Part shown: positions 39,555-55,889 of the stretch, piece by piece
Numbering within the stretch: position 1 is the stretch's first letter
Layout: each line of letters starts with the position of its first letter
Source: Candidatus Bilamarchaeaceae archaeon
GTDB lineage: Archaea; Micrarchaeota; Micrarchaeia; Anstonellales; Bilamarchaeaceae
Direction: 5' to 3'
DNA: 64,000 nt
NCBI GenBank assembly: GCA_038870635.1
Contig: JAVZJR010000001.1
Coordinates: forward strand, 116,740-180,739
The notes under the pieces: model-generated
The model's database searches: none
What the model was told of the DNA's origin: nothing
The model's input: the letters and a program-made list of their open reading frames with translations, nothing else
Translations under genes and position numbers: made by a program

Positions 39555-40571
39555 ATGACAGTTCTTTTTATTGTGGAGTCAATTGGCCTCGGCCATGCCA
39601 CAAGAAGTTATGAAATAATAAAAGAATTTTTAAAAAAAGGACATCGTGTGGAAGCGATAGCACACAATAGTGCAGCTGATTTTTTTAAAAGTAAATCAAT
39701 AAACACACATGAAATACCATTATCCATTTTTCCGCAAAAAAATAAAGAAACGGTTGATTTTGGAAAAACATTATTGCAAGGAATAAAATTAAGGAATATT
39801 GTCGCCATAGGCGCGATAAGTGGAATAATAAAAAAGAAAAAACCAAGTGCAATAATCATTGATAGTAGTATAAGCGGGATGATAGCCGCCAATACTACAA
39901 AAGACAAGGCAACGCCTATTCTTTTCATAACAACAGATAACACTTACCAAAGTGGACTAAAAACAACAGAAAAACAAAAACAAAATTTCGGCATAATCAA
40001 TAATTTTATACAGGCAAGTGTAGACGCGTATATCGTCCCAGATTTTCCTCCGCCTTACACTATCAGTGAAAACAACTTGGTCTTAAACAAAAAAATTAAT
40101 TTTGTTGGGCCGCTTTCATGGGCGAAAGGATTTGACATACCAAAAAAAACAAAAGGGGTAATATTAACACAAGGTGGATCAAACATTGTATCGGAAAAAA
40201 TCACAACAATTTTAAAAAATAAAGTATATACTCCTACGCGTGAGGAATATGAAAAAAAATTTATAACAGCAGATGTCGTCATCCACCACGGCGGCCACAC
40301 AACCACAATGGATTGCATCGTTTTAGGGAAACCACAGATAACGATACCAATAGATGGTTATACTGAAAGGATAAACAATGGGAAAAAAATAGAAAAATTA
40401 GGCTTAGGAAAAAATCTCGATGAAAAATGGTTAGATAAGAACACATTAGATTACGCTATAGAAGAAGTAAAAGAATACAAAAAGAACATTATTAAATTCT
40501 CTAAATATGCTCGTTCTTATGATGCGCCAAAAAAAGTATACGAAATTTACGAAAGCTTAAAGAAAAAATAA
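39555..40571 (+). CDS. GT-B glycosyltransferase (family 28/MJ1255-like)
   Basis: GLGHATR, PDFPPPY, VGP, HHGGHTT. Confidence 0.88.
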   Translation: MTVLFIVESIGLGHATRSYEIIKEFLKKGHRVEAIAHNSAADFFKSKSINTHEIPLSIFPQKNKETVDFGKTLLQGIKLRNIVAIGAISGIIKKKKPSAIIIDSSISGMIAANTTKDKATPILFITTDNTYQSGLKTTEKQKQNFGIINNFIQASVDAYIVPDFPPPYTISENNLVLNKKINFVGPLSWAKGFDIPKKTKGVILTQGGSNIVSEKITTILKNKVYTPTREEYEKKFITADVVIHHGGHTTTMDCIVLGKPQITIPIDGYTERINNGKKIEKLGLGKNLDEKWLDKNTLDYAIEEVKEYKKNIIKFSKYARSYDAPKKVYEIYESLKKK

Positions 40572-40742
40572 TGCCAAGGGGGGAATTCGAATCCCCGACC
40601 TCTCGATTTTGATTCGAGAGGGCATCGAACGAAGTTCGATACAACCTCTCGATTTCTCAGTAAATTTCATCGGCTTTCGCCTCAACACTCATAGGAATTT
40701 CACCTATGAGTCGAGCACTCTAACCAACTGAGCTACCTTGGC
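40572..40742 (-). tRNA. Elongator tRNA-Met(CAT) with 51-nt 37/38 intron (40654-40704) plus a 46-nt second insert
   Basis: GCCAAGG/CCTTGGC acceptor; CTCGA-CTCATA...A-TCGAG anticodon arm; GGGGA TTCGAAT TCCCC T arm; G1-C72 and no GGG/CCC stem, so not initiator. Confidence 0.88.
40654..40704 (-). ncRNA. Intron-encoded box C/D sRNA predicted to guide Cm34 of the host pre-tRNA-Met
   Basis: Guide CCTATGAGT, D' TTGA, GGC-GAAA-GCC hairpin, C' GATGA, D CTGA; the D'+5 base pairs with C34. Confidence 0.75.
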
Positions 40743-40784
40743 AAAAGATAGCGAAGTGCAGTGACAGCAAATGCATGTCACTCA

Positions 40785-40801
40785 AACTGAGCTACCTTGG
40801 C
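40785..40801 (-). repeat. 17-bp duplicate of the tRNA-Met 5' end (copy of 40726-40742)
   Basis: aactgagctaccttggc occurs twice, 59 bp apart. Confidence 0.9.
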
Positions 40802-40853
40802 GATTATATATAAAAATAGATAGACAAAAATTTAAAAATTAGTATAAAAAAAG

Positions 40854-41474
40854 CTATTTTTCTTTATCTAAAATGAATAGAGGACCTCCGTCTTTACTAC
40901 AATTATAAAAAATTTTATAATTGGGTTTCCATTCGTAAAAATTACAGATAATCTCATTATCTTTATCAACAGTTAAATGATAAAGTTCATAATAATAAGT
41001 CCTATCATCCTTTTTCCATCGGCCTACAACAAAGATATGGTCGTCTCCTATAAATACTTTTTCTATATCAGCCTTTTTTCGTATAGAACATGTTGTAACA
41101 GTTTGCTGGGTGTATTCCTTTATTCCTGATTTATTATCAAAGTTTTTTTTCTCATCAATTGATATAAACCAAAATTTATCTGTAGGAGAAATTATTAACA
41201 AATAAAAGGGCGCTCTGTCTTTTTTATTAAATTCCTTTAAATAAAAAATTTTATTGAAGTCTTCTTTTTTAAAACCCGGAATTTGAATGTTCGCCTCTAA
41301 GAACTTTTCAATAGCATTAGATCTTTTCTCAATACTATCATTTCTTATTTCTTCAAGTGGCTCTTTGCAAGATTTAACTGTATCTAATTTTATATTATTT
41401 GCAAATGTATTAGTAGCAATGGCAGTAGCAAGAAGAAGAGCAGCAGCCTTCTTTTTAAATGCCATGTTTACCAT
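40854..41474 (-). CDS. Secreted hypothetical protein
   Basis: Signal peptide FKKKAAALLLATAIATNTFA. Confidence 0.7.
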   Translation of the reverse strand: MVNMAFKKKAAALLLATAIATNTFANNIKLDTVKSCKEPLEEIRNDSIEKRSNAIEKFLEANIQIPGFKKEDFNKIFYLKEFNKKDRAPFYLLIISPTDKFWFISIDEKKNFDNKSGIKEYTQQTVTTCSIRKKADIEKVFIGDDHIFVVGRWKKDDRTYYYELYHLTVDKDNEIICNFYEWKPNYKIFYNCSKDGGPLFILDKEK

Positions 41475-55800: not shown

Positions 55801-55889
55801 TGGGCCCGCCCGGAATCGAACCGGGAATCTTTACCGTGTCAGGGTAACGTCTTAACCATTGTCGAGAAGAACTTTTCGACTACAGGCCC
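55801..55889 (-). tRNA. tRNA-Val(GAC) with 16-nt intron at 15/16 (55859-55874)
   Basis: GGGCCTG/CGGGCCC acceptor; TTACC-CTGACAC-GGTAA; BHB helix GTCG/CGAC with bulges AAA and AAT. Confidence 0.9.

Follow-up and report, generated by a model that had tools for sequence, protein, structure and literature searches.

The question raised by this locus is how a tRNA gene can carry, in its anticodon loop, an insertion that repeats the adjoining exon verbatim, and how such an insertion arrives there. The gene concerned is the elongator tRNA-Met(CAU) gene of Candidatus Bilamarchaeaceae archaeon (assembly GCA_038870635.1), located on the minus strand of the 64,000-nt stretch of contig JAVZJR010000001.1 that was analysed here (the window; contig positions 116,740 to 180,739, coordinates below being those of the window unless a contig is named). 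The host genome, G000, comprises 859 kb in 8 contigs with 35% G+C and is 89.55% complete; together with six congeners (G001-G006) it makes up a genus set of seven genomes, and L-numbers denote loci extracted from genome or metagenome contigs. Rfam model RF00005 matched the gene with 54.5 bits over its full length (1-71), leaving 99 unaligned bases in the anticodon loop. The insert of 97 nt, which follows tRNA position 37, consists of a 51-nt canonical bulge-helix-bulge (BHB) intron and a 46-nt element (Table 1). The latter, a hairpin cassette at the 3' junction of the 51-nt intron, is most likely cut out by the splicing endonuclease as a second, nested intron, a prediction that we hold to be probable.

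A 12-mer had been reported in the preliminary description of the locus to occur twice on the minus strand, 46 nt apart. The repeat search bore this out: ACCTCTCGATTT on the plus strand, that is AAATCGAGAGGT on the minus strand, is present in two 100% identical copies with a spacing of 46, the cassette duplicating tRNA-Met bases 38-47. In 2000 mononucleotide shuffles of the region 40500-40900, direct repeats of at least 12 nt within 80 nt appeared in 5 cases and those of at least 17 nt in none; the whole window contains seven repeats of the former kind, two of them in the tRNA-Met gene. Between the copies, the hairpin claimed earlier was found as a 9-bp stem, and the segment CCTCTCGA-ATCAAAA-TCGAGAGG was read directly. 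The likeness of this segment to a spliced anticodon arm is real, but it follows from the nested BHB geometry and not from copying of spliced RNA, because the pairing of TGAG-AAA-TCGAGAGG requires a cassette resembling the 5' exon strand CTCGA-CTCA.

The 51-nt intron, with the motif CTCGA / CTCA / TA↓G ... TGAG / AA↓A / TCGAG (arrows indicate cuts), is a perfect BHB, as had been stated earlier: in the BHB scan it has the strict hBHBh' form with a central helix of 4/4 pairs, outer and inner helices of 5 bp each and cuts at TA↓G and AA↓A. The repeat allows 13 pairs of cuts that restore the tRNA, and one only of these lies in a BHB-like geometry. This nested motif, TGAG / AA↓A / TCGAGAGG ... CCTCTCGA / ATCA / AA↓A / TCGAG, has in G000 a central helix of 3/4 pairs (TGA:TCA) and an inner helix of 8 bp, with cuts after 159 and after 205 in the scan. 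The 5' cut of the cassette is the same phosphodiester as the 3' cut of the canonical intron, and taking out the 46 nt restores the perfect canonical motif. In the primary transcript, TCGAGAGG of the upstream exon copy would pair with CCTCTCGA (anti-X, the complement of the duplicated flank X) over 8 bp capped by the cassette hairpin, TGA of the last TGAG of the 51-nt intron would pair with TCA of ATCA, and the true anticodon-stem strand CTCGA would pair with the downstream 12-mer copy. The product would be a relaxed HBh'-type BHB, both AAA bulges of which are cut at AA↓A; ligation by RtcB would regenerate ..TGAG-AA↓A-TCGAG.., i.e., the perfect canonical BHB, and the 51-nt intron would then be removed. 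The decoy exon copy at such a gene would have to be masked by the antisense segment.

Table 1. Features of the tRNA-Met locus in the window, listed in the direction of transcription.
Feature	Position	Strand	Remarks
5' leader cassette of tRNA-Met	40743-40801	minus	copy of tRNA bases 1-17, 40801-40785; type-B hairpin, 40782-40760; leader-like GCACTTCGCTATCTTTT, 40759-40743
Elongator tRNA-Met(CAU) gene	40572-40742	minus	171 nt, of which 97 nt intervening sequence
5' exon, positions 1-37	40705-40742	minus	38 nt; CTCGA (anticodon-stem strand), 40715-40711; CTCA (32-35), 40710-40707
Canonical 51-nt intron at 37/38	40654-40704	minus	perfect hBHBh' by BHB scan
Half guide of the 51-nt intron, C'/D'-type	40695-40667	minus	CCTATGAGT, 40695-40687; D'-like TTGA, 40685-40682; hairpin GGCGAAAGCC, 40681-40672; C'-like GATGA, 40671-40667
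TGAG at the end of the 51-nt intron	40656-40659	minus	partner of CTCA (32-35) in the canonical BHB, or of ATCA (3 bp) in the nested BHB
Upstream 12-mer copy AAATCGAGAGGT	40644-40655	minus	AAA, 40655-40653, shared bulge (3' cut of the 51-nt intron, 5' cut of the cassette)
46-nt hairpin cassette, predicted nested intron	40608-40653	minus	from A↓TCGAGAGGT (upstream exon copy) to ..ATCAA↓
Type-A hairpin GTATCGAAC-TTC-GTTCGATGC	40622-40642	minus	9 bp, 3-nt loop
Anti-X CCTCTCGA	40614-40621	minus	complements TCGAGAGG of either copy
ATCA	40610-40613	minus	3' strand of the nested central helix
Downstream 12-mer copy AAATCGAGAGGT	40598-40609	minus	AA↓A, 40609-40607, predicted final 3' splice site
3' exon, positions 38-73	40572-40607	minus	

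Folding of the anticodon-arm region of the unspliced G000 RNA gave a minimum free energy (MFE) of -45.6 kcal/mol, -44.3 kcal/mol for the nested conformer and -37.5 kcal/mol for the canonical BHB on the upstream copy, i.e., a computed advantage of 6.8 kcal/mol for nesting; in G005 the MFE structure of this region is the nested conformer itself. Because of this difference in stability, the 46 nt would probably be removed before the 51 nt. Sequential double splicing, as suggested in the preliminary description, stands insofar as two excisions sharing one phosphodiester (..GAGAA↓A..) are needed, but the suggested order, with the 51 nt first, runs against these energies.

Within the genus, the tRNA-Met gene has the cassette in G000, G004 and G005, lacks it in G001, G003 and G006, and contains a plain hairpin intron in G002. 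Both exon copies accompany the cassette in G004 and G005. In G002, a 27-nt hairpin occupies the corresponding junction, its central helix TGAG:CTCA being perfect, and what aligns with the upstream copy has degenerated (GCGGAAGGAT); only the downstream copy can therefore serve as the exon in G002, and the nested element must leave before the canonical BHB can form. A scan of metagenome contigs (some of them near-duplicates) with a 3'-exon pattern revealed 86 loci, 39 of which have the tRNA-Met 5' exon motif: 25 possess a simple intron of 47-60 nt, five (L096, L083, L080, L095 and, with three tandem units, L043) cassettes with exon duplication, six a hairpin of ~31 nt and three other insertions. 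An exact-pattern scan for the cassette hairpin gave no match in metagenome contigs and, among genome contigs, matched those of G004 and G005 only. The six contigs with the ~31-nt hairpin have no exon copy at the junction, and, judging from the sequences, only the downstream copy can be the exon in them and the nested element must go first. The nested central helix comprises 4/4 pairs in L095 (ACAG:CTGT) and L080 (CTAG:CTAG), 3/4 in G000 and G005, and two plus a G.U in G004 (own counts). When nine of ten units were aligned (one identical unit being omitted), 85.7% of the cells were paired and 9 of 21 pairs changed on both sides, neither value being reached in 500 shuffles, a control that overstates significance since the nine units are related sequences. 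Taken by itself, the central helix had 25 of 36 cells paired (as high in 8/500 shuffles), with a covariation of 0.424 vs a shuffled mean of 0.245 (3/500), and controls with the helix slid along the alignment gave 10-61%. CTCA pairs with the same four bases in 17 of 36 cells (own count).

The enzymes that would act here are encoded in G000. A 389-aa open reading frame has two tRNA_int_endo matches (82.1 and 19.3 bits) and the size and layout of a three-unit epsilon2 EndA; its homologues, 71-79% identical, are present in all seven genus genomes, and RtcB was detected with 558.7 bits. A second tRNA_int_endo homologue of 175 aa (38.8 bits) lies at G000:C2:102401-102634. According to the accessible part of the source, the epsilon2 EndA of ARMAN-2 cleaves strict hBHBh' and relaxed hBH substrates in vitro, and relaxed HBh'/hBH (BHL) introns are cleaved by (alpha-beta)2 and epsilon2 EndA (PMC3239211); by analogy with the ARMAN-2 enzyme, that of G000 would accept relaxed motifs. 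As far as this part of the source portrays relaxed introns, the 46-nt element is similar to them in comprising a central helix, a bulge and one flanking helix and in co-occurring with an enzyme of broad specificity (by homology), and differs from them in one mismatch of the central helix and in that its cleavage is predicted. With two introns sharing a cut site, the locus offers a natural substrate for the tolerance of epsilon2 EndA towards imperfect motifs.

Archaeal pre-tRNAs with multiple introns and ordered splicing were reportedly described by Tocchini-Valentini et al. in 2009. Like these, tRNA-Met would have two protein-spliced introns whose motifs are mutually exclusive, the removal of one creating the motif of the other. 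Unlike in these, the two introns of tRNA-Met would meet at a single phosphodiester, at which one has its 3' cut and the other its 5' cut, and the predicted second intron repeats the adjacent exon verbatim, includes a decoy of the 5' exon strand and belongs to a repeat family that occurs in tRNA leaders as well. The pre-tRNA-Pro(GGG) of ARMAN-2, with two adjacent T-loop introns as given in the accessible part of PMC3239211, comes from the same phylum and meets the same enzyme type (epsilon2).

Several points weigh against nested excision. Splicing of the locus is inferred from sequence, and the acceptance of relaxed motifs from homology; in the nested motif of G000, only 3/4 central pairs form and a contiguous outer helix is lacking; in the RNAfold structure of the whole 171-nt precursor, the downstream copy is the partner of anti-X; and once the cassette is gone, the canonical BHB conformer lies 8.5 kcal/mol higher than the MFE, since a guide duplex within the 51-nt intron, discussed below, competes with it. 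Among the homologues, the central helix is weak in L043 (1-2/4), L096 (one Watson-Crick pair and two G.U) and the reduced 88-nt class (own counts), an extra piece of 16 nt in G005 (L005) and 32 nt in L095, in which no splice motif was found, separates TGAGAA of the canonical intron from the cassette, and in L083 the downstream copy is preceded by TGAG, an arrangement compatible with a single large intron bearing a canonical BHB. The relatedness of the aligned units mentioned above is to be added to this list. For the missing outer helix, a substitute may form across a three-way junction, with 27-31 pairing to the downstream copy; the guide-duplex competition with the canonical BHB is the same in cassette-free relatives; and, judging from L083, the splicing route may differ by lineage. 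Full-length RNAfold structures of the precursor and the intermediates are dominated by D-arm misfolds and do not settle the order of cuts.

The order given in the preliminary description is unlikely. In it, the 51-nt intron would leave first on the upstream copy, whereupon the RNA would refold to CTCGA[CTCATAA/ATCAAAA]TCGAG, with an inner TCGAGAGG/CCTCTCGA stem, and be cut at TA↓A and AA↓A with the central four nucleotides unpaired. The canonical BHB on the upstream copy is indeed perfect. After removal of the 51 nt, the conformer with the 7x7 loop (-54.1 kcal/mol) is found 1.5 kcal/mol above the MFE and below the upstream-copy anticodon-arm conformer (-52.0 kcal/mol), and CTCA can make two pairs with the four bases before the downstream bulge in G004, L096, L080 and L043 (own counts). 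Yet in G000 this central helix has 0/4 pairs, the conformer preceding the first cut is the one disfavoured by 6.8 kcal/mol, the bases before the two bulges covary together, and the scheme is inapplicable to G002 and the reduced forms with their degenerate upstream copy.

It is quite improbable that the gene is dead, i.e., that the cassette inactivated the tRNA and methionine is decoded by a copy in the unassembled 10% of the genome. The incompleteness of the assembly (89.55%) speaks for such a copy; against it, the exons are intact and score 54.5 bits, G004, G005 and all five metagenome cassette genes retain this arrangement, likewise with intact exons, and no second copy was found in G000, G004 or G005, the latter two genomes having one elongator tRNA-Met locus each. 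The preliminary description had called for another intact elongator tRNA-Met gene to be sought; none was found in the 89.55%-complete G000 assembly by ARAGORN with introns allowed, by the Rfam model (30 tRNA matches) or by our own stem/loop/T-arm scan (8 candidates, 2 of them real, namely the gene under study and the initiator), and the three methods together leave the gene under study as the sole non-initiator CAU tRNA found. The remaining CAU tRNA of G000 (G000:C1:40567-40641) has A1-U72 and three G-C pairs in the anticodon stem, which we take to mark an initiator. A tRNA with the anticodon UAU is present as read from the sequence, and a CAU tRNA-Ile2 is therefore not needed. With these exons and no paralogue found, the gene does not look like a tRNA pseudogene, a judgement that is not final since the genome is incomplete. 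In these genomes tRNA-Met can look absent, as standard tRNA finders miss or miscall such genes: default ARAGORN missed the gene, ARAGORN with introns allowed miscalled it as tRNA-Leu(caa) with a 97-nt intron, and the cassette-bearing genes of G004 and G005 were absent from the results of the Rfam search.

Misassembly of the locus, a concern raised earlier, is excluded, because independently assembled Logan contigs of four DNA runs from two studies (X2 of one, to which the possible source sample also belongs, X3-X5 of the other) cross it: single contigs without joints span 40400-41000 in X2, X3 and X4 and 40400-40866 in X5. X4 and X5 represent a strain variant that differs by 3 substitutions and 1 inserted base. 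The substitution at 40622 turns the closing G:C of the cassette hairpin into a G.U, another changes C2 to T in the upstream leader copy of the tRNA 5' end with the downstream copy unaltered, and the third lies outside the gene; the tRNA-Met exons are unchanged, a pattern that likewise argues against a dead gene.

Excision of the whole insert as a single 97-nt intron, cut at TA↓G and the downstream AA↓A, which the preliminary description had also listed, is very improbable, as CTCA (32-35) makes 0/4 pairs with ATCA in G000 and in the MFE structure the 9-bp guide duplex hides the 5' site. The arrangement of L083 does suit such an intron, and a single large one is possible in tRNA-Arg(TCT) of G001, where the 3' BHB half (GAAG-AAA-GCTGA) is repeated in each unit.

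The duplex just mentioned, formed by ACTCATAGG with CCTATGAGT of the intron and retained in the MFE fold of the anticodon-arm region, belongs to the C'/D'-type half guide of the 51-nt intron. The half-guide motif ATGAGT-N-NTGA-GG(hairpin)CC-GATGA is conserved among the genus and metagenome homologues, and the wobble C34 pairs with the fifth base upstream of the D'-like box, as read from the sequence. The intron thus displays a kink motif, a guide of ~9 nt, a fifth-pair target and conservation, as box C/D guides do, with a single box pair; fibrillarin is encoded in G000 (277 bits). The half guide is predicted to direct Cm34 methylation, which would take place prior to splicing. In the accessible part of PMC7994747, C/D small RNAs (sRNAs) target the first anticodon base of tRNA-Met in Pyrococcus, and the pre-tRNA-Trp intron (sR50) guides wobble 2'-O-methylation. 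Similarly to the guides described there, the 51-nt intron places a C'/D'-like kink motif beside a 9-nt guide whose fifth base pairs with C34; unlike sR50-type guides, it is of half size with one box pair, and methylation is a prediction.

Returning to the 46-nt insert, it is a member of an undescribed genus-wide family of hairpin cassettes at tRNA genes. A unit of the family consists of a flank X, a hairpin of type A or B (21-29 nt), the complement of X, a linker and X again, the last X being continuous with the gene; X ends in ..GGT, ..GTT, ..TCA or ..GGA. The insert follows this order (GAGAGGT, TGTATCGAAC-TTC-GTTCGATGC, CCTCTCGA, ATCA, AAATCGAGAGGT), and its type-A hairpin differs by compensatory changes from those of G004/G005 (ATTGAAC/GTTCAAT) and of other units. 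The leader of the same gene contains a further cassette with a 17-nt duplication, a spacing of 59 and the hairpin AGTGACA-TGCATTTGC-TGTCACT. For this 59-nt unit no BHB was found at 22 equal-offset cut pairs, by which a D-loop intron was ruled out; we read it as a leader cassette that is predicted to be removed by RNase P, the RNA of which was detected in G000 (87.4 bits). A match to the C/D sRNA sR17 on the opposite strand (40740-40792) scored 17.7 bits vs a gathering score of 36 and was taken as chance.

Two cassettes, of types A and B, precede tRNA-Asn of G000 (G000:C1:77213-77350), where three identical 33-nt copies comprise the leader and tRNA bases 1-17; the type-B hairpin has compensatory changes (GAGACA/TGTCTC), and the type-A hairpin, ATTGAACG..CGTTCAAT, is near that of the 46-nt insert. 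The same architecture was recognized at 8 further loci in G001, G005 and G006, with arrays of eight units before one G006 tRNA and two or three before tRNA-Ser genes. In tRNA-Arg(TCT) of G001 (L019 and L021, G001:C1:45800-46750), at least four cassettes, with an assembly gap in the array, are located in the gene at 47/48, after ..GCTGACGGT, which is the same structural position as that of the tRNA-Met insert, and each unit repeats GAAG-AAA-GCTGACGGT, the whole 3' half of a canonical BHB. At L017 (G006:C39:7200-7650), two antisense cassettes at a tRNA 3' end duplicate that 3' end; insertion therefore ignores the direction of transcription, which points to a process at the DNA level. Type-B hairpins number 13 in 4 of the 7 genus genomes, none turned up in 54 genomes representing 22 further genera of the same taxonomic family, a reversed control pattern gave 0 as well, and all 13 cassette-bearing loci read adjoin or sit in a tRNA gene. 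Among the 30 tRNA genes of G000 detected with Rfam, five have nearby copies of at least 11 nt of their own ends, a sixth shares one 10-mer, and only tRNA-Met has a copy inside the gene body.

Three other identities of the cassettes were considered and rejected. CRISPR arrays do not fit, as the 'spacers' are identical within an array and copy the adjacent tRNA, and two hairpin types alternate. Reverse-transcribed spliced tRNA is not the source, since anti-X complements 8 nt of X, three past the anticodon stem, and the complements in other cassettes are not natural tRNA partners. Repetitive extragenic palindromic (REP), BIME and REPIN elements with their RAYT transposases, and miniature inverted-repeat transposable elements (MITEs), are short conserved palindromic modules of intergenic DNA. 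The cassettes are likewise short, conserved, palindromic and found in either orientation to the neighbouring gene (L017). Unlike REP/RAYT or MITE-type elements, they have no cognate transposase match in the assembly, their duplications are long and variable in length (12, 17, 33 nt), each with a locus-specific anti-X, and all loci read are at tRNA genes. Searches for Y1_Tnp and Phage_integrase gave no match in the 89.55%-complete G000 assembly.

As to history, the insert looks like a recent intron gain, one of the options of the preliminary description, because it is absent from three of the seven genus genomes, present as the cassette in three and reduced to a hairpin intron in G002. On the EndA tree (one gene, unrooted in effect), G000 is placed with the cassette-free G001 and G003, and G004, G005 and G002 with the cassette-free G006. 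The cassette-bearing genomes are not one clade on this tree, which therefore implies more than one gain or loss; the cassette could plausibly be lost in a precise manner if the 12-nt repeats recombined. As a DNA event, it would be an insertion that duplicates its 5' flank; otherwise lethal at 47/48, it would have become an intron extension, since the duplicated stretch extends back past the former 3' splice site. As a speculation, anti-X arises by template switching on a quasi-palindrome, or it is selected for hiding the decoy, which leaves the true partner strand to pair with the correct copy. Least probable of all is that the duplications are attachment-site remnants of an integrated element and not introns: integrases do leave behind pieces of tRNAs as direct repeats, and a connection with the gain of introns is proposed for Caldiarchaeum in the accessible part of PMC3293823, but here the sequence separating the copies is only 34-42 nt long, the hairpins in it have been preserved through compensatory changes and are seen again at many tRNAs, the length of the repeat varies as given above, neither Phage_integrase nor Y1_Tnp was matched in the assembly, and an insert within the tRNA body must leave the RNA whatever its origin.

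The D-loop intron of G002 and L095 (44 nt, central helix GCTC:GGGC) contains a type-A-like hairpin followed by TTGCAC..GCT, as in the leader cassette of G000, and its sequence suggests the same process with the upstream copy kept as exon. It is possible, and we put it forward tentatively, that hairpin cassettes inserting at tRNA genes with duplication of the 5' flank are a source of new BHB introns in Micrarchaeota. An insertion would be spliceable, and would survive, if the duplicate spans an existing splice site or if the flank and its inverted copy form a BHB; the redundant exon copy and the hairpin would then decay, leaving an ordinary short intron. On this tentative view, the tRNA-Met lineage would show all the stages, from no insert through one to three cassettes with verbatim exon copies to the reduced hairpin intron of 27-31 nt. 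The locus would thereby offer a concrete, testable route for the arrival of archaeal tRNA introns, in which a hairpin module with a flank duplication recreates a splice site and intermediates are seen in relatives. The gain of an intron through a mobile element, accompanied by a directly repeated piece of tRNA, is described for tRNA-Thr of Caldiarchaeum subterraneum (PMC3293823), and tRNA intron transposition for Thermoproteales (Fujishima 2010, as described in PMC4090602), in the accessible parts of these sources. Common to those cases and ours are a recent gain at the population or genus level tied to duplication of tRNA sequence and similar inserts across several tRNA genes. Unlike in Caldiarchaeum as presented there, neither a 1.8-kb element nor a recombinase is present here, and the unit measures 46-60 nt; unlike in both cases so presented, the duplicated exon segment lies within the intron itself, and the modules occur outside the tRNA body as well.

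Some minor observations concern other tRNA introns and leaders. Many tRNA-Met homologues (L002 of G004, L095, L096, L111, L080 and others) contain a further intron in the T-loop (..GGGGATTCGA↓...↓TCCCC..) and/or the D-loop. Within the window, a tRNA-Val(GAC) gene, by our own reading, with an intron in the D-loop region is located at 55801-55889 on the minus strand (Rfam 56.7 bits, missed by default ARAGORN). In G000, tRNA-Glu (G000:C2:97336-97480) has hairpin leader units repeating its first 11 bases, the 3' end of tRNA-Val(UAC) is copied 26 nt upstream, and the 3' part of another tRNA recurs 249 and 318 nt downstream (the latter two loci being G000:C2:134058-134146 and G000:C6:8877-8973). The motif (A)CTTCG(C/T)T is situated ~10-16 nt upstream of the mature 5' end in the leaders of tRNA-Met, -Asn and -Glu of G000 and of several G001 and G006 tRNAs, and is present also in the first, non-duplicated leader copies.

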